This document shows positions 20,155 to 49,097 of a stretch of 49,097 bases of DNA, in pieces. Position 1 is the stretch's first letter; each line of letters begins with the position of its first letter. This DNA comes from a bacterium. Lineage in GTDB: Bacteria; UBP15; UBA6099; JAJRTR01. Below the pieces are notes generated by a model. The model made no database searches and had not been told where the DNA came from. It was given only the letters and a program-made list of their open reading frames with translations. The stretch is from positions 1 through 49,097 of the forward strand of contig JAJRTR010000103.1 of assembly GCA_024278215.1 (NCBI GenBank), in the 5' to 3' direction. The translations under genes and the position numbers were made by a program.

Positions 20155-20333
20155 GAGCCGATTGCAAAATTCTGTTCGTAGCGAGGTCGAGAGAAATCTT
20201 TCAGAAGCAAGGCGGAGGTGCAAAATCCTCGCAGGCGTACTCGTAGAGTACGTTGAGGACGATTTTATGCCGACAACGCAGCTATGGACAATTGCAGCCG
20301 ACCGCAGCAGAATCATAATTTTTCAACTGGCTC
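20155..20333 (+). mobile_element. MITE family A, copy
   Basis: GAGCCGATTGCAAAATTCTG...CATAATTTTTCAACTGGCTC; AATA duplicated on both flanks. Confidence 0.9.
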
Positions 20334-21519: not shown

Positions 21520-21698
21520 GAGCCAATTGAAAAATTCTGATTCGGCGGCGGTCGGCTGCTATTTTCCATAGCTGCGTTGTCGGCATAAAATCGTCCTCGA
21601 TGTACTCTACAAGTACGTCTGCGAGGATTTTACACCTCCGCCTTGCTTCTGAATAATTTCGCTCGACCTCGCTACGAACATAATTTTGCAATTGGCTC
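21520..21698 (-). mobile_element. MITE family A, copy in reverse orientation
   Basis: Same TIRs with a reverse-complement body; AAAG duplicated on both flanks. Confidence 0.9.
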
Positions 21699-22870: not shown

Positions 22871-23032
22871 GAGCCAATTGCAAAATTATGTTCGAAGCGA
22901 GGTCGAACGAAATTGTTCAGAGCAAGGCGGAGGTGCAAAATCCCCGCAGGCGTACTCGCCGAGTACGTTGAGGATGTTTTTGTGCCGACAACGCAGCTAT
23001 CCGCAGACGAATCAGAATTTTGCAATTGGCTC
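22871..23032 (+). mobile_element. MITE family A, copy with an internal deletion of ~17 bp
   Basis: GAGCCAATTGCAAAATT...AATTTTGCAATTGGCTC; ATCT duplicated on both flanks. Confidence 0.9.
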
Positions 23033-34863: not shown

Positions 34864-37400
34864 TTATTTTCATCAGATAGCCTTGCTCTACAAGTTCTTC
34901 AGGGTCTCCCTTCCGAAGCAAGTTGTTCATTTTTTGTATAGCCTTTTCTCATTCAACCCCACAATACACGTCGTCAATTTCAACTGAATATGCGGACTCA
35001 GACTGCCACCGATTTGAATAATACTTCCATTACAACATACACTTCTACCCTTTTCGATACTATTGCTATATTAGTGCTTTTTAAATCTCATTTCCAAACA
35101 TTTCATCAAAACATATTGCTTTCGGCTTTCAGTGTTTCTCCCATTTGTTTGCGAATACCCTAATTGGTAAATGTCCGTTTCTATAACTCTGCATTTATCA
35201 TTTATCTTTATTCATCACAAAATGTGTAACCAGCTTTCTATGCAACCACAACTCTCAGATCAGCCTCAATTCACTGTGTAAAACTTGATATTATTACATG
35301 TAGCACCATTTAATGTTCTTAAGAATTGTATTTGAGATTGCTCGCCGGCGCTTAAAGTGTATATCAGTCACTTACGTTGATTGGAATCCATTAAAAATAT
35401 CAATTATTCAGTATATAAATGCAAAAAATGCGAATTCTTTACTAAACTATCAGCAGTTGTGTATAAAATTTCGTTTGTAGAATTTACAATCTCCGGGTTT
35501 ATGTCCCCACTACACCTAGTGATATGCCCGCATTCGTTTCAACATCGCGAATATCTACATTCAGTTCAAATACAGACACACTTTTCTCAATCACAGCATA
35601 ACATGTAATTACTTATATATCCCGTATACTTCACCTTAAAATATTTCGCGTTAGATACTAAGAAACACTATTCATTATCAGCTATTTAGTCGTTTCGGGA
35701 AAATGGCCGGTATGCATATTGCTATTACTGCTATATATCGCATTTCTGTATATTCCTTCTTACAGCATTATTTTACTTATAGCTATTAGTTAATATAATC
35801 TTCAAATACAATATAGATTAAATATATTTGCAGTCAATATATTTATTATAATCTTCTTGCATACTCATCAAATTTCAATTACTGATAACCAATAATTACT
35901 ATATTGATATTTGCTCGTGGTTCTGCGATTATCATGCAGTATTTTTTCCTATGATATCATTCCTGTAACCATCAATGAAGTAATTTTTCTCTAATTATCT
36001 ATTGTATTTGATGACGCCTATATACATGCGTTATCCCAGCATGACCAATTGCAACTATCCCAGGTGACAACTACATTATACTCGATAAATGTGCATAGTT
36101 ATTGCTTCCTTATAAGCAATAAATGTGTAATCTGTTTTATCAAAGTATATTTACGCGATAATATACATAATAATATACTCGATTACAAATGTGAGCGATA
36201 TTTGTTTTTTGATTCCTTACATACTATTTCTATTTATCATTAGTTGGTTTTATATATTGCATAGTTGCCAATATTGGATATTAATAATTATAATTTCTAA
36301 AAATGTATTTTTCTATTATCACTCGTATACATAAATAATCATGGCAATATCATTATAGTATCATCTCTGAAATGTATGTTGTGCATTTGTTTTAATCTAA
36401 ACTACTATGCCGGCATCTCAATGTCATATATATTCTTCCAAAACTTATACATTTCTGTGATATTTCCATAATACTTATCAATGTTATATATATTTTTAGC
36501 GGAATGGCATGTATTATTCGAATATATTTTCCGTCGTATATTTATCAATTATCACATATGGAATAATAGAATTAATTAATAATATCACCAATACCGTTAT
36601 ATGCGATTTTTGTAATATTGTGCTATTCCTGATAATATTTGACAAATTATCGTAATTTTGTAATAGCAATCATTATTGTAATATCCGAAATAAATATTGA
36701 CAATACTATATCCAGACAAAAGATGCTACGAATGAGTAACCTATAATGATATTATTGCTTAATACAAGCATCACATAGTATTTAATGAACAATAAGTGAA
36801 GCATAATAATATATAAATAGAATAATAGTGCTGTCAAGTATCTAAGGTGCAATTCTACACTGAGCTAATGTAGTACCAGATATTACGCTAAAAATGTACA
36901 AGTATTTTGATATTCATGCTTATATTTGCAATATTTATATTTCGCAATTTACAATGATGCTATAATGAATATTGAAATACGATTCATCATTACATTATCC
37001 ATTACCTAGTCGTGCTATAATTCCACTATATGTTATTATAGCACGATTATTGAAAATGAGTTAATACTGGATGACATCTCCGTTTATGTCTTTTTGTATT
37101 CATATATGTTATATGGCCCACAATATTATACTAGACAACTAATTATAGAGGAATGCTCTCACACCACATCAACTATGATAGATGCATTGATTAGATGTAT
37201 TACCTCACATGCTACATATAAAATATATTCACATGAATTCAATTTAGAAATGTTCCATGCAAGGAGATCTTCATGCGTATCAGGCAGTTTTATATGATCC
37301 TGGTTTTTACTAACAATATGTGGTACATTCTTAGAAATATACCTGACACTGTCAACATACATATATTGTATTAAATGAGGTATACACATAACTCAACCAA
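34864..37400. other. Very AT-rich ORF-less region, possibly a decayed gene
   Basis: Sample lines 35761-35820 and 36241-36300 have 11/60 and 12/60 G+C; no ORF longer than ~76 codons lies wholly inside it. Confidence 0.7.
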
Positions 37401-37464
37401 CATAAAAGGTGAACTGTGCAATATCTTCATTGGATTCCCGCCTAAAAGTGGGAAAATGGCAGAA

Positions 37465-37669
37465 TAACCCGCATATTTCACAAATGCGAGTGAAAACCGG
37501 AAGAATATCCATAATACAAGGCGCGGCAAGTGAGTGGTGATGGAGCCAGCCGGCCAGCCGGCCTCTTGCGCAAAATACAGGTATGTGACAGATCCCGAAT
37601 CGCCGCCGTAACGCAGTAGAATGGGGATTCTCACGGTTTTCCGGATTTCTTTGTGAGAGATCCGGTTTA
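37465..37669 (+). mobile_element. MITE family B, copy 2
   Basis: TA-ACCCGCATATTTCACAAATGCG...TGTGAGAGATCCGGTT-TA; same body as copy 1. Confidence 0.85.
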
Positions 37670-37988
37670 AATACAAGACAGCTTAAAATATATAATTCAC
37701 GTGAAGACGGAAATCCATTTTAAACCAGGCTGAGTCCAGTATGTCAATACAAAGTTGACGCGACAATATAGCAAGATAATATATATAACGGAAGGACGCA
37801 GAAGTTGACATGTGTATGATTCGGTATACAATAATATTTCAAGCACCATGGCGGTGCCCGTTGACAACTACTTGAAATTGAAATGCAAATACAAAATACA
37901 TGTAGATACGCACAACATAGCAATTAGTGGGCATCATGGTGCTATGCAGTGCTATAGCCTATATTCTATATATATGCACATACTACTG

Positions 37989-38167
37989 GAGCCAATTGCA
38001 AAATTATGTTCGTAGCGAGGTCGAACGAAATTTTTCAGAAGCAAGGTGGAGGTGCAAAATCCCCGCATGCATACTCGCCGGTTACGTTGAGGATGATTTT
38101 GTACCGACAACGCAGCTACGGACAATTGCAGCCGACCGCCGCAGAATCAGAATTTTGCAATTGGTTC
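37989..38167 (+). mobile_element. MITE family A, copy
   Basis: GAGCCAATTGCAAAATTATG...CAGAATTTTGCAATTGGTTC; TACTG duplicated on both flanks. Confidence 0.9.
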
Positions 38168-38348
38168 TACTGGGATTATCACGGACAGAAAAAGACCCTA
38201 ATCGAAAGAGAAGGCAGCAGAATTGGGGACAGACTTAGAATTATGCACAGAGCGGAAGTGCAAGGGGCAGGACGTGAAGTAAAAATTTGAGAGTAGTTTA
38301 TTGGTTCGGAATAGTTTTGTTCACGTCAGCTATTTGATGCCTGTTGTT

Positions 38349-38386
38349 TTTCGAACTCTCTACAAACATAATTTTTCAATTGGCTC
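38349..38386 (-). repeat. MITE family A, truncated left end
   Basis: Reverse complement reads GAGCCAATTGAAAAATTATGTTTGTAGAGAGTTCGAA. Confidence 0.7.
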
Positions 38387-38508
38387 TTTAGTAAACAGCC
38401 GTCCCCCACCCTCCTCTGGGACATCTGAAACCGGGTTGCAAATTTCAGCCATGTTCCCGGGATTCCGCGACTTCATTTCAGGTTGCTGAAGTATTGCGCT
38501 GTTTCCTG

Positions 38509-40718: not shown

Positions 40719-40771
40719 GTATCAATACCGGTCACTTAAGGCGCTAAAAATCATAATTTTGCAATTGGCTC
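40719..40771 (+). repeat. Solo family C end followed by solo family A right TIR
   Basis: GTATCAATACCGGTCACTTAAGG, then AATCATAATTTTGCAATTGGCTC. Confidence 0.7.
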
Positions 40772-40903
40772 TTCTGTTCTAATCACCCATTAATGTCGCA
40801 CACAGGTGATATACTTATTTGAGATGTCAGCAATTAACGATAAATGTCGGAGATTCTTTTGCAGGGACACTCTGTGAAGAAAATTTATATCTGGAGGAAG
40901 AAA

Positions 40904-43900
40904 ATGGCAAAGAAGGATCAGAAACAGACAACTACAAGAGCTTACACGATGCGGCTGAAAGGCATGGATCCGGAAGACAGTAGCTGGCGCGATATGCTGT
41001 GGGAAAGCCATGTCGCTATCAATCGTGGCGCTCGCGCATTCGGGGACTGGCTTCTCACGTTCCGTGGTGGTATCTGCCACACTCTTGCTGATACGCCGGT
41101 GCCTGTGAAAGGAAAGCCGGACAGGGAACCAACGCGCGAGGAGAAAAAAGACAAACGTATTCTCCTGGCTCTTTCCTGGCTTTCTGTGGAGTCGGAAGCT
41201 GGAGCTCCACAGAAATATCTCGTATCACACGAAGGAAAAGGCAAACGTCGAAGGTGGCAGACAGTCGAAGCGCTCGAAGATATTCTGCACACGCGCGGAC
41301 TGCCGCCGGAAGCTATTCGGTCATGGCTGGCGGACTGCGCCCCCGCCGTCTCTTCAGCAATCCGCGACGATGCTGTCTGGGTGAACCGAAGCAAAGCCTT
41401 TGACGACGCTGTGAAAATGATCGGCGATTCTCTAACAAGAGACGAAATCTGGGACCTTCTCGACAGGTTCTTTAATAGCAAAACCCAGTACATCACTCCA
41501 ATTGAAAAACTGTCCGATAAAGATGATGATGCGCCCACGGAAAAAATCGAGAGCAAGGATCTCGTTCAAAAAGCACTGGGATGGATAAGTAACAGATTCG
41601 GGAAAGCCAAAGGTGCTGATTTCGAGTCTATGGCTTATGCGTTTGATGTAATTGCAGATTGGGCGAAGTCGGAGAATGCCGGGATCGATACAAAAGAGGG
41701 ATTATCAAACCTCATCGCGAAATTGAAAGATAAGGGATTGGTTGTATCTCAAGACAACCCGGCAGGGATCATGAACCTGGTGAGCAGGCCAGGACCACCC
41801 AACAAAATGCTGCTGACTATAAAATCCATATCAAAAAAAACGTGTATTGATGACGAAACATTAAACATCCTCAAAGGAGCATCCACAGACGCAGAGGAAT
41901 GCAGAAAAAAGATAGGTCGAAAAGGGCCGAAACCATGGTCGGATGGCATCCTTGCAGACATAGAATCGCAATGCGGTTTTACATATCGAAAACCTGGAGG
42001 TACTGCGGCAAACGCCGAGTTCTCCGTCATGCTCGATCATGCCGCAAGGCGCGTATCCGGAAATCAGTCGTGGATCCGGCTTGCCGAGGCCAATCGGCGA
42101 TCTTTCGACAATGAAGCCGATAAGATTTCACTCGTACTCGACGACGCGAAAACATGGCTCGACGCATATTGCGAGAGAAGAGCCGGCACTTCGGGAGCTA
42201 TCGATGCATACGTAATAAACAAACGCGCTATCGAGGGGTGGGGGCATGTAGTTCAAGCATGGTCACAACCTGATTGCAAAACTGTAGAAGACCGTATCAA
42301 GGCGGCCCGCAATCTGCAGAGCGATCAGGATATCGAGAAATTCGGAGACATCCAACTCTTTGAAGCACTCGCCGATGACGATGCAGTTTGTGTCTGGCTG
42401 AAAGACGGCAAACCATCGCCTGACAATCTCAAAAACTATGTCGCAGCCGCCATCGCCGTGCGCAATAAACTCCGTTTCAAAGTTCCTGCATACAGGCACC
42501 CCGATCCTCTCCTGCATCCTGTCTTCATCGACTATGGCAACTCACGCCTCTTCATAAAGTTCGCCGCTCATAAACCCAAAAAGGGACAGGACATCCGTTC
42601 CCTTGTCATGACCATAATCCGCAATGGCGCGCCTGAAACTGTTTCCCTGTTGTGGCAATCGAAAAAACTCATGGCCGATTTCGACCTGCGAAACAAACTC
42701 CTTGAGTCCAAAAACGAATCATCCGAGCCGGCAAATGTCTCACGCGCCGACAGGCTCGGCCTCGCCGCATCGGCCGCCGACCCCGACGGTGAGATACATA
42801 TAATGAATGTATTCGATGAGAAACACTGGAACGGTCGCCTCCAGGCGCCCCGCGCGCAGCTCGAAGCCCTCGACAGAGCGCTCAGGAAGAACGGAGGCCA
42901 GTGGGATGAGCGAACCCTGCGCATGAAAAACAGCATACAATGGTTCGTCACTTTCTCCCCCAAGCTACAGCCCGCCGGACCATGGATAGACTTCGCGAAA
43001 CATAATGGATTAAACCCTAACAGTAAGTACTACCCACCTGCTACCCTCAACAAGGGCCGCAAAGGCATGGCCCGCATCCTGCTCTCGCGGCTGCCCGGAT
43101 TGCGCATTTTATCTGTAGACCTGGGCCATCGCATCGCCGCTTCCTGTGCTGTCTGGGAAACTCTTTCAAGTGAGCAAATGCAGGCCGCCTGCTCCGCCGC
43201 CGGTCACGATGCACCCGGATCAGACGACATCTTCATTCATCTTTCTTCGCAGAATCCTGAAGGCCAAACCCGAAATGTTATTTACAGGCGAATCGGCGCA
43301 GACCTCCTCCCCGACGGTTCTCCGCACCCGGCACCGTGGGCCAGGCTCGACAGACAGTTTCCTGTCAAGCTCCAGGGAGAAGCCGAAAAACCACGAAAAC
43401 CCGGTCCGCTGGAATACGAAGCCGTTGCCGCCCTCGAACAGAAAATCGGACTCGTCGAAACTGAACCTATAGAAAAACGATTCCATCACGTCGACAAACT
43501 CATGTCCCACGCGGTGCGCATCGGAAGACTCGGGCTCCGAAGGCACACCACCGCTGCCCGCATCGCCTTCAACCTGACAACTGATAAGAAAGCGCTTCCC
43601 GGAGGCTCAGCAGAGAAACTTTCTGACGACGACCGGGTCAAACTCCTCACTGACTCTCTTTTCGAGTGGCATCTATCAGCTTCATCCACCAGGTGGAAAT
43701 CACCAGTTGCGTCCGCCTTGTGGAAAGAACACATACAGCCGCTGACCTCCGGCATCGAACTCCCGGACCCCGATTCACAGGACACCGAGATGTCCGCACC
43801 AGCGAGAAAGAAGAAGAACGACACGCTTAAAGCCACACTTAAACCCGCTGCTGAAAAACTCGCCGGCGACAGAGCTCTTTGTATTAAGCTGCACAAACTA

Positions 43901-45142
43901 TGGGCCGACCTCTGGGCACGCGAAGATAGCGATTGGAAAGTGAGCCTGCGCACCCTGCGAGACTGGTTGCTGCCGTCCGGCAAATCAACCGCCTCGGGCG
44001 CCATCCGCTGCGTCGGCGGTCTCTCTGTCGAGCGCATTACCACTCTGAAATCTCTTTACCAGCTGCAGAAGGCATTCTTCACACGGCTAACTCCCGAAGG
44101 AAGGCAGGTAGATGAATCTTCCGGCCAGCCGCTCACCGCAGGCGAACACTTCGGAAAACGCACTCTCGACGCTATAGAAAAACTCAGGGAAAACCGCGTC
44201 AAGCAGACAGCTTCACGCATTACAGAAGCCGCGCTCGGAATAGGAATCGAATCGAAAAGACCTATCGAAAAAGATTCAAAAAGATTCAAAGGAAAGATGC
44301 CAGCCCGGCCTTCTCGCCAGGTCTTTAAACCCTGTCATGCCGTCATCGTCGAAAATCTCCGGCACTACCGCCCGGAAGAAGTACGCACAAGACGCGAGAA
44401 CAGGCAACTGATGTCGTGGGCCTCCTCGAAAATATTCGACCACCTGGCCAATGCCTGTGAACTCAACGGTTTGCTGCTTCGTGAAGTGTCCGCCGCTTAC
44501 ACATCGAGACAGGACTCACGCACAGGAGCGCCCGGCAGCAGATGCAAAGATGTGCCGGTGAAGGATTTTATTGGAGGAAAATCTTTCTGGAAAAACGAAA
44601 TCGCACGCTCAGACAAGAAATTCAAGAAAGGGACAGCCGACTCCCGTGACGACCTGCTGCTCGATCTGCGAAACTTCTGGGAAGACAAACCGCCCGAAGT
44701 CATCGAAAAAGCCCGCCCGATCCGCATCATCTACAGGGGCGGCGAACTCTTCGTTTCCGCCGATGCTCTCTCGCCTCTCTCCAACGGTATCCAGGCCGAC
44801 ATAAACGCCGCCGCCAATATCGGCCTCAAAGCGTTGCTCGATCCCGACTGGGCCGGTGCATGGTGGTATGTGCCGTGCAACACAAAGACGCACAAACCCC
44901 TCGCCAGGCGCGCTGGAGGCTCGACGGCAATCGACACTTCGCAGTCTCTTAAGGAAGATGACACCAGTGAAAAAAGCGGTAAGAAGAAAAACACAAAGAA
45001 AACCAGGGATGTTGTGAATTTATGGCGCGACCCTTCAGGCGGTCCCGTCCATGATTCTCAATGGAGCCCCACAACCGAATACTGGCAGGATGTCCAGAAA
45101 AGAGTTGTCAGTGTGCTGAGAAAATATAATAAACTGGAGTAA
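40904..45142 (+). CDS. cas12b: Type V-B CRISPR effector Cas12b (C2c1), ~1412 aa
   Basis: N-terminal RAYTMRL...LWESH.A.NRG...FGDWLLT; RuvC-I LSVDLGHR (D at 43118), RuvC-II VIVENL (E at 44351), YTSRQDSRTGAPG, RuvC-III ADINAAANIG (D at 44798); next to cas4-1, cas2 and array; GGAGG RBS favours ATG 40904 over 40844. Confidence 0.95.
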   Translation: MAKKDQKQTTTRAYTMRLKGMDPEDSSWRDMLWESHVAINRGARAFGDWLLTFRGGICHTLADTPVPVKGKPDREPTREEKKDKRILLALSWLSVESEAGAPQKYLVSHEGKGKRRRWQTVEALEDILHTRGLPPEAIRSWLADCAPAVSSAIRDDAVWVNRSKAFDDAVKMIGDSLTRDEIWDLLDRFFNSKTQYITPIEKLSDKDDDAPTEKIESKDLVQKALGWISNRFGKAKGADFESMAYAFDVIADWAKSENAGIDTKEGLSNLIAKLKDKGLVVSQDNPAGIMNLVSRPGPPNKMLLTIKSISKKTCIDDETLNILKGASTDAEECRKKIGRKGPKPWSDGILADIESQCGFTYRKPGGTAANAEFSVMLDHAARRVSGNQSWIRLAEANRRSFDNEADKISLVLDDAKTWLDAYCERRAGTSGAIDAYVINKRAIEGWGHVVQAWSQPDCKTVEDRIKAARNLQSDQDIEKFGDIQLFEALADDDAVCVWLKDGKPSPDNLKNYVAAAIAVRNKLRFKVPAYRHPDPLLHPVFIDYGNSRLFIKFAAHKPKKGQDIRSLVMTIIRNGAPETVSLLWQSKKLMADFDLRNKLLESKNESSEPANVSRADRLGLAASAADPDGEIHIMNVFDEKHWNGRLQAPRAQLEALDRALRKNGGQWDERTLRMKNSIQWFVTFSPKLQPAGPWIDFAKHNGLNPNSKYYPPATLNKGRKGMARILLSRLPGLRILSVDLGHRIAASCAVWETLSSEQMQAACSAAGHDAPGSDDIFIHLSSQNPEGQTRNVIYRRIGADLLPDGSPHPAPWARLDRQFPVKLQGEAEKPRKPGPLEYEAVAALEQKIGLVETEPIEKRFHHVDKLMSHAVRIGRLGLRRHTTAARIAFNLTTDKKALPGGSAEKLSDDDRVKLLTDSLFEWHLSASSTRWKSPVASALWKEHIQPLTSGIELPDPDSQDTEMSAPARKKKNDTLKATLKPAAEKLAGDRALCIKLHKLWADLWAREDSDWKVSLRTLRDWLLPSGKSTASGAIRCVGGLSVERITTLKSLYQLQKAFFTRLTPEGRQVDESSGQPLTAGEHFGKRTLDAIEKLRENRVKQTASRITEAALGIGIESKRPIEKDSKRFKGKMPARPSRQVFKPCHAVIVENLRHYRPEEVRTRRENRQLMSWASSKIFDHLANACELNGLLLREVSAAYTSRQDSRTGAPGSRCKDVPVKDFIGGKSFWKNEIARSDKKFKKGTADSRDDLLLDLRNFWEDKPPEVIEKARPIRIIYRGGELFVSADALSPLSNGIQADINAAANIGLKALLDPDWAGAWWYVPCNTKTHKPLARRAGGSTAIDTSQSLKEDDTSEKSGKKKNTKKTRDVVNLWRDPSGGPVHDSQWSPTTEYWQDVQKRVVSVLRKYNKLE

Positions 45143-45145
45143 CCC

Positions 45146-46879
45146 GTGACAGACGAATATCTCTGGCCCGCACGAAATGTTGCTGAATACGCGTATTGCC
45201 CGCGACTGTTCTATCTTATGGAAGTCGAAGGCATACACGTGCCGAGCTCGGACACTGAAGAAGGCAATATCGTGCATTCCCGTGTCGACAAGCCCGGCTC
45301 AAAACCGCAGACACCGGACGCTGCACAAGAAGCCGGCGCGCACGTTTCGCAAAAGCCGGAATCCGTGCGCAGCCTTACGCTGACGGACAAAAAACTGCAA
45401 CTGACCGCCACACTCGATCTGGCAGAGCTGAAAGGCGTGGAAGCCGTCCCCGTCGAATATCGAAGAGGGCGTCCACGCCATGCTGTCATAGCGCCCCCTC
45501 CGGACGACCCCGACGACGCGCAACAGAAACCCCTCACACGGCCCGAACCATGGCCCACCGACCGGGTCCAGATCGGACTCCAGTCCATTCTCCTCGAAAA
45601 CAACGGCTACATTGTCCCCAGAGCCGTTCTCTACTACGCGGCAGAAAAACGCAGACTTGAAATCACCATCGACGCAGCTATAAAAGCCGAAGCCATCGAC
45701 ACGCTCGAAGCGGCAAAAGATTGTGCCGCCCACCAGAGGCCGCTCCCTCTGGTTAATGACCCCAGGTGCCCTCGTTGTTCCCTCCAGCCTGTCTGCCTGC
45801 CCGACGAAATAAATTACCAGCGTTTCACGGACAGAAAACCGGAACTCACACCAAGAAAAATATGGCCGCCCCGGGACGACGGCATCCATGTAGTAGCGCA
45901 GAAAGACGGCATACGAATAGGCGTCAGAGGAATGTCGCTATACGTCACAGACCGCAACGGCAAAAAAACAAGTGAAGTGCCCGTCACAAATATCGAAAGC
46001 TTGTCTATCATCGGCAAAGTGCAATTAACCACACAGGCCCTCCATGTACTCGCCGAGCGTAATATTCCCATTGCTTTCCTCTCGGGGGCGGGCCGAATGA
46101 TCGCCATGATCGACCCGCTCGGCCCGGTAAGCGCTTCCGTCAGAGCAGCGCAATTCAAGGGTTTCAACGATCCCGTGAAATGCCTGGAAATCACAAAGCG
46201 CCTGGTAGCCGCAAAGATAAGCAATCAGCGCACCATGCTGCTAAGAAACTTCCCGGACACACCAAAAAAATGCGCCCGCGAACTGAAAACACTCATCAGC
46301 AATACCCTGGATGCCGCGACCATCGATTCCATCAGAGGCCTTGAAGGAAATGCCGCGGCCATATATTTCGAACAATTCCCGAACATGATAAAATGCGACG
46401 CCGCTTCAGAATTCGCCGCACACGGCAGGCAGCGCCGCCCTCCGCCCGACCCGATAAACTCCTGCCTCTCCATGGCCTACACAATGCTTGCTCATGAATG
46501 CACCTCCGCCGCTCGCATCGCCGGGCTCGAACCATCTCTGGGCGCCTATCACGTATACCGCCCGGGCAGACCCGCCCTGGCTCTCGATCTCATGGAGCCC
46601 TTCCGCCCTCTTGTCGCCGACTCCGTCGCTCTCACCGCATTCAACAAAAACGAACTGCGCGACAGCCACTTCCGGCGCACCGCCGCAGGCTGCCTGCTTT
46701 CAGATGCCGGCCGCAGAGCTTTCTTCAACGCCTATGGCAGACGCCTCAACACCGACGTCACACACCCTGTGTTCGATTACAGACTCAGCTACAGACGCAT
46801 GATAATCCTTCATGCACGCATGATAGCCGCATGGCTGAGAGGAGAAATCCCCCGGCTCGAATTCCTCACTACCAGATAG
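45146..46879 (+). CDS. cas1: Cas4-Cas1 fusion
   Basis: Cas4 part: YCPRLFY, PVEYRRG, RVQIGLQ, CPRCSLQPVC (Fe-S cysteines). Cas1 part: GLEGNAA, RRPPPDP.N, GAYH, LALDLMEPFRP. Confidence 0.95.
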   Translation: MTDEYLWPARNVAEYAYCPRLFYLMEVEGIHVPSSDTEEGNIVHSRVDKPGSKPQTPDAAQEAGAHVSQKPESVRSLTLTDKKLQLTATLDLAELKGVEAVPVEYRRGRPRHAVIAPPPDDPDDAQQKPLTRPEPWPTDRVQIGLQSILLENNGYIVPRAVLYYAAEKRRLEITIDAAIKAEAIDTLEAAKDCAAHQRPLPLVNDPRCPRCSLQPVCLPDEINYQRFTDRKPELTPRKIWPPRDDGIHVVAQKDGIRIGVRGMSLYVTDRNGKKTSEVPVTNIESLSIIGKVQLTTQALHVLAERNIPIAFLSGAGRMIAMIDPLGPVSASVRAAQFKGFNDPVKCLEITKRLVAAKISNQRTMLLRNFPDTPKKCARELKTLISNTLDAATIDSIRGLEGNAAAIYFEQFPNMIKCDAASEFAAHGRQRRPPPDPINSCLSMAYTMLAHECTSAARIAGLEPSLGAYHVYRPGRPALALDLMEPFRPLVADSVALTAFNKNELRDSHFRRTAAGCLLSDAGRRAFFNAYGRRLNTDVTHPVFDYRLSYRRMIILHARMIAAWLRGEIPRLEFLTTR

Positions 46880-46893
46880 AAAGGATATTCCCG

Positions 46894-47184
46894 ATGCGCA
46901 GATGCTACATCGTATGCTACGACATCGCAGACCCAAAAAGACTCAGACTTGTCCACAGAACACTCAAAGGCTACGGCGAAAAATGGCAATACTCCGTCTT
47001 CTTCTGTGTTCTCAAAGACATAGACCGTGTCAGGCTCCAGGGCGACCTGAAAAGCATCATCAACAATGACGCGGACCAGGTCCTTATCATCGACTATGGC
47101 CCCGACGAAACAAAAGCTCGCGAAAATGTCACCACACTCGGCGCCTCACTGCCCGAACAACAAAGTTTCACACTTGTAATCTGA
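46894..47184 (+). CDS. cas2: CRISPR-associated endoribonuclease Cas2 (96 aa)
   Basis: MRRCYIVCYDIADPKRLR..., QYSVF; AAGGA RBS; 3' end of listed ORF 46498..47184. Confidence 0.95.
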   Translation: MRRCYIVCYDIADPKRLRLVHRTLKGYGEKWQYSVFFCVLKDIDRVRLQGDLKSIINNDADQVLIIDYGPDETKARENVTTLGASLPEQQSFTLVI

Positions 47185-47186
47185 AC

Positions 47187-47215
47187 TTGACAGGCAGAGC
47201 CATCGATGCTATCAT
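47187..47215 (+). promoter_or_regulatory. Sigma70 promoter for the tracrRNA
   Basis: TTGACA (47187-47192), 17-bp spacer with extended TG at 47207-47208, TATCAT (47210-47215). Confidence 0.8.
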
Positions 47216-47221
47216 ATTGCT

Positions 47222-47315
47222 AAGGTTCTACAGGAACCGGCACCTCCATGAAAGCGTCTTCCTCCTCAACGAGTTCAGCACATGGCATCGTTCAGGTCTG
47301 CGTCGCCGGGCCGGG
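47222..47315 (+). ncRNA. Putative Cas12b tracrRNA
   Basis: 5' hairpin GGTTC/GAACC; CCATG/CATGG stem enclosing GCGTC (pairs with repeat 3' GACGC); CATCGTTCAGG...CGTCGCCGG anti-repeat at 47286-47309; ends approximate. Confidence 0.8.
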
Positions 47316-47332
47316 CATCTGTCCTTTGACAA

Positions 47333-47506
47333 TATCTTTCGAGCATCCAGGTGGCATAGCTACCCCCGGACCATGCTCGAAAGATAGAATACAAGGGAAG
47401 TTTTGACCGGATTGACAAACAATTCCCCTCCCCCAAAAGGACAAGTTAATGCAAGCTCGAAAAACAGAGAAAAAACCTATATGCATAAGCCGGATTTTCG
47501 CCCGCG
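47333..47506 (+). promoter_or_regulatory. CRISPR leader with a 14-bp perfect inverted repeat
   Basis: TATCTTTCGAGCAT (47333-47346) / ATGCTCGAAAGATA (47373-47386), then an A-rich stretch up to repeat 1. Confidence 0.65.
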
Positions 47507-49097
47507 GTCACACCGGCAGACGACACCCCGAACGATGGACGCCTTCCGCTGCTGTAGTTCGTACGGCCATTGCGCGGTCACACCGGCAGACGACACCCCG
47601 AACGATGGACGCAAAACCAGCAGCACCATTTATGATAGTGCATCCGGTCACACCGGCAGACGACACCCCGAACGATGGACGCCGGTTGCTGCTGCGCTTG
47701 CTGGTGTTACACTAGCAGTCACACCGGCAGACGACACCCCGAACGATGGACGCCACGCGCAGAAATGCCGGTGCCGGGACTCGGATTCAAGTCACACCGG
47801 CAGACGACACCCCGAACGATGGACGCAAGTACCCTTCGCACTTTTTTCCGCTTCATTACTGTCACACCGGCAGACGACACCCCGAACGATGGACGCATGA
47901 AGAAGATAATTTCAGTTACGAAAAAGTTTCACGTCACACCGGCAGACGACACCCCGAACGATGGACGCGAATTGATCGTGAACGCGGCGCAGGCACTCAA
48001 TCGTCACACCGGCAGACGACACCCCGAACGATGGACGCTCTCTGGGAACACGAAAAACGGATATGTGTTTTTAGTCACACCGGCAGACGACACCCCGAAC
48101 GATGGACGCTCAACCGCATAGGATTCGGCATTTATGCACCCTGGTCACACCGGCAGACGACACCCCGAACGATGGACGCTAGACTGTTACTAACTCATCA
48201 GTGAGATAATCAAGTCACACCGGCAGACGACACCCCGAACGATGGACGCTGAAAGTCGAACACGTAGATATATCAGAAGTCTCGTCACACCGGCAGACGA
48301 CACCCCGAACGATGGACGCTAAACATGCAGAGAAATATGATAAAAGTAGATTGAGGTCACACCGGCAGACGACACCCCGAACGATGGACGCCGTTGACGA
48401 TCAGCGAAAAGAAAGCGAGTTGCGAGTCACACCGGCAGACGACACCCCGAACGATGGACGCATCTTGCTGAATCGCGAAAAGCGCGTCGCCGATCGTCAC
48501 ACCGGCAGACGACACCCCGAACGATGGACGCCCGTTATCAGTGTTCCGATTGTCGTATAAGTTCCAGTCACACCGGCAGACGACACCCCGAACGATGGAC
48601 GCATACAATCGTAAGCCGACTTGTAATCTCGCGTTAGTCACACCGGCAGACGACACCCCGAACGATGGACGCGGGAAACCTGATTCGATCGCGGCGCGCG
48701 CGCACGGTCACACCGGCAGACGACACCCCGAACGATGGACGCAATCATCGTTCTGAAGTACCGCTTCACCCATGATTGTCACACCGGCAGACGACACCCC
48801 GAACGATGGACGCTCGTCGAGATCGACTTCAACGAATTCACTATTGGTCACACCGGCAGACGACACCCCGAACGATGGACGCTTCTTATGATTAAAAAAA
48901 ATCTTACTGAAGATGATCGTCACACCGGCAGACGACACCCCGAACGATGGACGCCATCGCCATAGCGTGTCACCGTCTCTGCGCTTTACGGTCACACCGG
49001 CAGACGACACCCCGAACGATGGACGCCATCGCCATAGCGTGTCACCGTCTCTGCGCTTTACGGTCACACCGGCAGACGACACCCCGAACGATGGACG
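47507..49097 (+). CRISPR. CRISPR array: 23 repeats of GTCACACCGGCAGACGACACCCCGAACGATGGACGC (36 bp) and 22 spacers of 33-37 bp; runs off the window end
   Basis: Identical repeats start at 47507, 47577, 47647 ... 48991, 49063 (last one missing its final base); orientation inferred from leader position and tracr complementarity. Confidence 0.99.

Follow-up and report, generated by a model that had tools for sequence, protein, structure and literature searches.

The window analyzed here (the whole stretch of 49,097 nucleotides, which is the entire contig C76 of its source genome) carries in its last 8.2 kb a type V-B clustered regularly interspaced short palindromic repeat (CRISPR)-Cas locus built around a Cas12b of 1,412 amino acids. 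We find that it is very probably a chromosomal and intact adaptive immune system of the large-Cas12b clade, the group that includes the Cas12b of Candidatus Hydrogenedentes (ChCas12b). The locus is an additional member of an established clade in which a solved relative exists. All of its elements are encoded on the plus strand, and their order is cas12b, a cas4/cas1 fusion gene, cas2, the gene for the trans-activating CRISPR RNA (tracrRNA), the leader, and the array. An earlier interpretation made from the letters of the DNA (the sequence-only reading) had described the type V-B locus as complete and apparently active, with its elements in this order, and each of them could be located.

A large Cas12b with an intact active site

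The cas12b gene (40904 to 45142, plus strand) lies within an open reading frame (ORF) of 40844 to 45142, and its probable start is the ATG at 40904, which is preceded by a GGAGG 9 nucleotides upstream. Both profile searches and alignments identify the product. The Cas12b equivalog model NF033949 gave 947.2 bits (cut-off, 150) over profile positions 1 to 1252 of 1253, and the Pfam C2c1 domains PF22126 and PF22077 gave 83.5 and 28.9 bits, respectively (cut-off, 27 each). The best match among solved structures was by far the 1,496-residue chain of entries 9KLN to 9KLQ, which is ChCas12b (1252.9 bits, residues 29 to 1427), and BLASTP against the ChCas12b-like database protein P0111 showed 46% identity over the full length. 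In that BLASTP alignment, D739, E1150, and D1299 (counted from the ATG at 40904) stand opposite D767, E1220, and D1364. The ChCas12b study (PMC12204704, NAR 2025), which presents the 1,496-residue protein in four cryo-electron microscopy structures (9KLN to 9KLQ), reports that these three residues coordinate two metal ions and that their replacement by alanine abolishes or strongly reduces cleavage. The three positions are invariant in all 25 aligned sequences, and D482 of the window protein corresponds to D496 of ChCas12b in the alignment. The residue numbers that the sequence-only reading gave for the RuvC site were correct, since the alignment puts them opposite the proven catalytic residues of ChCas12b, and the motifs that it quoted (RAYTMRL, LSWLSVES, KFGDIQLFEALA, and KVPAYRHPD) are all present in the translation.

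A search of 5.8 billion proteins, with 8,000 candidates scored, returned at least 466 protein clusters of large-Cas12b relatives at an E value of ≤0.001. The best 120 of these 466 measure 1,375 to 1,569 amino acids and are 43 to 66% identical to the window protein. Among the matches listed, the sole close relative is P0004, at 66% identity, and the next is at 50%. The long Cas12b of Desulfatirhabdium butyrativorans, to which the sequence-only reading had likened the protein, is indeed one of the relatives (P0095; 1,489 amino acids, 45% identity). When GTDB was examined with one genome per species, 138 genomes had a relative, and these were spread across many phyla. Within the small uncultured phylum of the window itself, Cas12b occurs in 2 of the 13 genomes examined, and the other Cas12b is 50% identical to the one described here. 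A FastTree phylogeny of 120 sequences paired the window protein with P0004 with a support of 100. The median path from this pair to the rest of the tree was 1.77, versus 1.21 among the other sequences, which marks it as a divergent pair inside the clade. In the comparison by BLASTP, profiles, and phylogeny that had been suggested as a check, the protein passes the Cas12b model and is placed inside a tree of 120 large Cas12b sequences.

AacCas12b and BthCas12b (5U30, 5WQE, and 5WTI), the prototypes among type V-B effectors, share with the window system the subtype, the RuvC chemistry, the dependence on a tracrRNA, and the Cas4/Cas1-Cas2 module. Only the RuvC part aligns with them, however (query residues ~1018 to 1251; E values of 1e-17 to 2e-23), and their PDB chains are 1,108 to 1,137 amino acids long, compared to 1,412 here, which agrees with the length of about 1,100 to 1,150 residues that had been quoted for characterized Cas12b proteins. 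With 46% identity to the ChCas12b-like P0111 and a match to AacCas12b and BthCas12b in the RuvC part only, near-identity to a characterized Cas12b was not found. Large Cas12b1 proteins of ~1,500 amino acids with their own adaptation module have been reported by Altae-Tran et al. (PNAS 2023; PMC10691335). The window system is like this clade in its size class, in its Cas4-Cas1 fusion and Cas2, and in belonging to a group widespread in uncultured bacteria, and unlike the rest of it in forming a divergent pair with P0004. An assignment to type V-B2 (Cas12b2) was rejected for misfit in size, those proteins being given as ~700 to 800 amino acids in the same survey (PMC10691335).

ChCas12b is the closest well-described system. 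It is reported to use a 5'-TTN protospacer-adjacent motif (PAM) and a single guide RNA (sgRNA) of 75 nucleotides of tracrRNA plus 16 nucleotides of repeat and to cleave in vitro at 55°C (PMC12204704), and the same paper cites Wei et al. (Sci Bull 2024, known to us from this citation only) as a genome-editing paper. The branch had been called much less studied in the sequence-only reading. That description has been overtaken, because ChCas12b has been solved with a defined PAM and a working sgRNA (PMC12204704), and large Cas12b1 proteins have been described as a group (PMC10691335). The two systems have in common the full-length homology and the catalytic triad, a tracrRNA fold of three stems and two repeat:anti-repeat duplexes, a 36-nucleotide repeat that stands 5' of the spacer, and a tracrRNA gene and array that follow the cas genes. 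They differ in that the window protein is 84 amino acids shorter and, among other gaps, lacks a segment of ~42 residues found immediately ahead of the bridge helix in ChCas12b. They also differ in the PAM loop and in duplex 2 of the guide scaffold, which are treated below.

The tracrRNA and its pairing with the repeat

A sigma-70-like promoter is predicted directly after cas2 at 47187 to 47215 (plus strand) from its match to the consensus, with TTGACA, 17 nucleotides, and TATCAT with a TG. It agrees with the consensus at 11 of 12 positions and is the only such site in 47100 to 47600, where shuffled sequences gave a mean of 0.3. About 7 nucleotides past it begins, by eye, a resemblance to the published ChCas12b sgRNA as read from primer sequences. 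The tracrRNA gene (47222 to 47317, plus strand) has stems 1, 2, and 3 as in the ChCas12b sgRNA, followed by the anti-repeat. Iterated nhmmer searches recovered tracrRNA homologues in 64 of 80 related loci, where they lie on the cas strand, past the last cas gene and ahead of the array. One of the 64 comes from a Hydrogenedentes genome (L042), and by eye its sequence agrees with the sgRNA published for ChCas12b.

For a covariance model, the three stems described for ChCas12b were written onto the alignment, and 81 sources were searched. There were 70 matches in 67 of the 81 sources, in each of which the RNA lay between the cas genes and the array. The window tracrRNA, which was itself in the model seed, scored 72.4 bits. 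Across the 70 sequences as aligned by the model, all 14 pairs had changed on both sides. Paired cells amounted to 95.5%, against 70.9 ± 0.8% after shuffling (a value as high was seen in 0 of 500 shuffles) and no more than 56.9% after the partners were slid. A search of Rfam gave no family reaching its gathering score within the window. Second tracrRNA-like copies on the minus strand, upstream of cas12b, were seen in three of the related loci (L047:5571-5669, L053:5515-5612, and L061:3931-4024; 54.6 to 61.1 bits).

The duplex predicted between the tracrRNA and the repeat has an energy of -38.7 kcal/mol, compared with -27.7 ± 3.8 kcal/mol for shuffled repeats, the best of which reached -39.6 kcal/mol. 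The prediction has two parts. In duplex 2, GCGUC (47254 to 47258) pairs with the last five bases of the repeat, GACGC. In duplex 1, the anti-repeat (47286 to 47317) pairs perfectly through CAUCGUUC (47286 to 47293) with GAACGAUG of the repeat and then continues in an imperfect extension. Judged by its sequence and predicted fold, the tracrRNA is a homologue of the ChCas12b scaffold, so that it does not count as new. Like the latter, it probably departs from the scaffolds of AacCas12b and BthCas12b, since sgRNAs of the ChCas12b type are reported to fold differently from those two (PMC12204704).

Duplex 2 is where the locus departs from its relatives. The repeat ends in GACGC in the window, as the sequence-only reading had noted, and in GACAC in all 48 resolvable repeat ends of the relatives. 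This count comes from 51 relatives that have an array as well as a tracrRNA; 3 of them could not be resolved because of contig ends or too few copies. On the tracrRNA side, GUGUC stands in 64 of 64 relatives, and only the window has GCGUC. The Cas12b locus in the other genome of the same phylum is also canonical, with GACAC and GUGUC. As read from these sequences, one pair of duplex 2, the -2:-59 pair, has changed from A:U to G:C; the tracrRNA and all the repeats carry the change, and the pairing is kept. Such a compensatory change in the tracrRNA and all repeats argues for selection on the pairing. ChCas12b is reported to contact duplex 2 via phosphates and a sugar only (PMC12204704), and a swap from A:U to G:C would therefore be tolerated. 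Contact with the backbone alone leaves the near-universal conservation of GACAC/GUGUC unexplained.

The adaptation genes, leader, and array

The adaptation module consists, by profile searches, of a Cas4-Cas1 fusion and Cas2, as type V-B requires. The fusion gene (45146 to 46879, plus strand; 577 amino acids) starts with a GTG 4 nucleotides past the cas12b stop. Its product matched NF049935 (cas4g_cas1g) with 630.6 bits (cut-off, 560) over profile positions 1 to 546 of 546, and both Pfam Cas4 and Pfam Cas1 were matched as well. The cas2 gene (46894 to 47184, plus strand; 96 amino acids) has an ATG with GAAAGGA upstream, and its product gave 59.8 bits with Pfam Cas2 and 34.4 bits with TIGR01573.

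The leader (47318 to 47506, plus strand) has a TTGACA (47327 to 47332) and a CGAGCA..GGTGG motif that are conserved in the clade. Past the tracrRNA core, 34 of 65 loci have a TTGACA, versus 21 of 1,300 control windows. It may be a signal in the leader or, for an array promoter, the -35 element; a -10 element to go with it was not recognized here. The conserved motifs between tracrRNA and array (47324 to 47360 in the window, and in relatives) read TCTTTGACAA, followed by GCGAGYGCGAAGGTGG in the relatives and CGAGCATCCAGGTGG here.

The array (47507 to 49097, plus strand) has 23 repeats of 36 nucleotides and 22 spacers and is cut by the contig end. The repeats had been called invariant, and 22 of the 23 are identical, the last being one base short at the contig end. 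The spacers are 33 to 37 nucleotides long and, with spacers 21 and 22 identical, make up 21 distinct sequences. Since the published sgRNA has the repeat 5' of the guide, the array reads in the plus direction. It goes on in contig C112 of the same genome. The opening 132 bases of C112 share 98% identity with the end of C76, in an overlap that includes one variant repeat; C112 then adds four more distinct spacers, and the final repeat ends at C112:414. The same 36-nucleotide spacer stands twice in tandem at 48955 to 49062 and again at the start of C112 (L002:1-97), beside a one-base repeat variant. Either tandem duplication or variation between strains accounts for this repeated spacer, which is the probable cause of the break in the assembly.

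Spacer targets

Spacer 20 (48883 to 48918, plus strand) matches contig C46 of its own genome at 33 of 36 positions (E value of 4e-9), and the mismatches are positions 1 to 3, which are PAM proximal. The protospacer has the 5' flank TTTTT, within a T run, and lies inside an ORF of 218 amino acids that had no family match in PHROG and Pfam searches. As a single case, the match agrees with a PAM rich in T and with a self-match that the cell tolerates. C46 (L085, 1-11166) is 11 kb long; nearly all of its ORFs lie on the same strand, and family matches are few. Two of its 10 ORFs had weak PHROG matches of unknown function, and Pfam recognized only TPR/zinc ribbon and transglutaminase-like domains. 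Searches of its ORFs against PHROG and Pfam could not demonstrate it to be a phage or a plasmid; it may be a mobile element that ended up in the genome bin.

The spacers of the array, from the window and C112 parts together, had no match in 50,697 phage records, and the 12 further genomes from the phylum gave none either. Comparison with plasmids gave weak matches only (81 to 84% identity; E values of 0.04 to 0.4), which we took as chance. A 24-nucleotide match on contig C115 joins the last 8 bases of the repeat with 16 bases of spacer 13 and was likewise treated as chance.

Other features of the window

A dispersed 20-nucleotide word, GAGCCAATTGCAAAATTATG, often occurs in inverted pairs ~160 to 180 bp apart. 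Its sites include 42 to 61, 200 to 219, 20155 to 20333, 21520 to 21698, 22871 to 23032, 37989 to 38167, 38367 to 38386, and 40752 to 40771, and one arm lies ~130 nucleotides upstream of the cas12b start. The window has 14 copies where 0 are expected, and the genome has 559 (at most 2 mismatches) versus 0 in the control, with many of the matches at contig ends. It looks like a very abundant element similar to miniature inverted-repeat transposable elements. The region of ~34990 to 38500 is AT rich, with a guanine-plus-cytosine fraction of 0.32 to 0.41 versus ~0.51 elsewhere, and is nearly without ORFs of at least 70 amino acids; the few small ORFs in it had no Pfam match. It is flanked by a phosphodiesterase-family gene and a der/EngA-like GTPase gene.

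Discussion

The genes, the family membership of their products, the catalytic residues, the conserved tracrRNA fold, and its pairing with the repeat were all observed here, and together they outline how the system may work. The promoter directly after cas2 would make a tracrRNA of ~95 nucleotides, which would pair with each repeat of the array transcript, CAUCGUUC with GAACGAUG and GCGUC with GACGC. Cas12b would bind this tracrRNA:repeat scaffold, with the spacer 3' of the repeat, and locate DNA that matches the spacer beside a 5' T-rich PAM. Its single RuvC site (D739, E1150, and D1299) would then cut both strands, and new spacers would be added by Cas4/Cas1 and Cas2. Expression, RNA processing, the PAM, and cleavage are here expected by homology to ChCas12b.

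Several observations weigh against a system that is intact and ChCas12b-like in every respect. The scan of 47100 to 47600 recognized nothing like a terminator where the tracrRNA ends, and ahead of the array it gave no further promoter-like site. The alignment in which the pair changes were counted was fitted to the covariance model, which somewhat favors the structure, and the window was in the seed. The hint at the PAM comes from one protospacer that lies in a T run and has three PAM-proximal mismatches. P289, G290, and K292 of the ChCas12b PAM loop are reported to be needed for cleavage, and G230A, P289A, G290A, and K292A cripple the enzyme (PMC12204704). The loop reads PGYK in ChCas12b and PGPPNK here, and the position of ChCas12b G230, where the alanine mutant cut poorly, is taken by Ala235 in the window protein and by Gly in 23 of 24 relatives.

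These differences could mean that the locus is a functionally distinct variant, in which the remodeled PAM loop recognizes a non-TTN PAM and the G:C pair in duplex 2 allows guides to be exchanged with ChCas12b only in part. Together with P0004, its only close relative, the window would then form a side-branch in which two interfaces have been rewired, the last stem between CRISPR RNA (crRNA) and tracrRNA on the one hand and the PAM loop with the G230 position on the other, and a non-TTN PAM and incomplete guide cross-reaction would follow. We consider both this functional divergence and the rewired side-branch unlikely. In their favor, the loop is ISGPG[YH]KSAT in 21 of 24 aligned relatives and VSRPGPPNKM here, and the motif GPG[YHFW]K[ST]A, present in 91 of 119 relatives, is RPGPPNK in the window. 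The Ala in place of G230 matches one of the substitutions that cripple ChCas12b (PMC12204704), no other locus examined has the GACGC/GCGUC pair, and the well-supported pair with P0004 lies far from the rest of the tree. On the other hand, the Pro-Gly of the loop is retained and the Lys stands two residues further on, and the T-rich 5' flank of the sole protospacer is compatible with TTN. Duplex 2 is touched by ChCas12b through backbone and sugar only, as reported (PMC12204704), and the compensated pair therefore need not alter function; if the ChCas12b tracrRNA were combined with a crRNA of the window, the outcome would be just a G-U wobble.

It is also conceivable that the locus is decaying or silent and no longer defends the cell, but we regard this as quite improbable. 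The duplicate spacers 21 and 22, the spacer that matches the cell's own genome, the lack of a convincing spacer match in the phage and plasmid collections, and the presence of Cas12b in just 2 of 13 genomes of the phylum would fit such a state. Against it, the three cas genes are open and their profiles are covered end to end, the catalytic residues are intact, the repeats in the window are all identical, and the compensatory change in tracrRNA and repeats argues for selection on the pairing. The self-match has its mismatches at the three PAM-proximal positions, which is expected if cleavage of the cell's own DNA is avoided.

That spacer 20 regulates the 218-amino-acid gene on C46 by binding without cutting is highly improbable: the match of 33 of 36 positions inside an ORF of its own genome and beside a T-rich flank would suit such a role, but there is just this one case, C46 is a short contig of 11 kb, perhaps binned mobile DNA, with few family matches, and, because Cas12 enzymes begin target pairing at PAM-proximal positions, mismatches at those three positions make stable binding unlikely.

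In conclusion, an intact adaptive immune system of the ChCas12b type remains the reading that we favor, and it adds one further intact type V-B system, in a small uncultured phylum in which 2 of 13 genomes have Cas12b. Since a solved and engineered member of the clade is already available, the value of the locus as a tool is incremental. What it offers is a 46%-identical orthologue that is 84 residues shorter and has a naturally compensated pair in a stem that is otherwise invariant in the clade. The divergent PAM loop may change the PAM preference, and if the two interfaces were indeed rewired, the system would be an orthogonal partner for the existing large-Cas12b editor. The natural G:C pair is a ready test of why GACAC/GUGUC is so conserved in this family despite a contact that is made with the backbone only.

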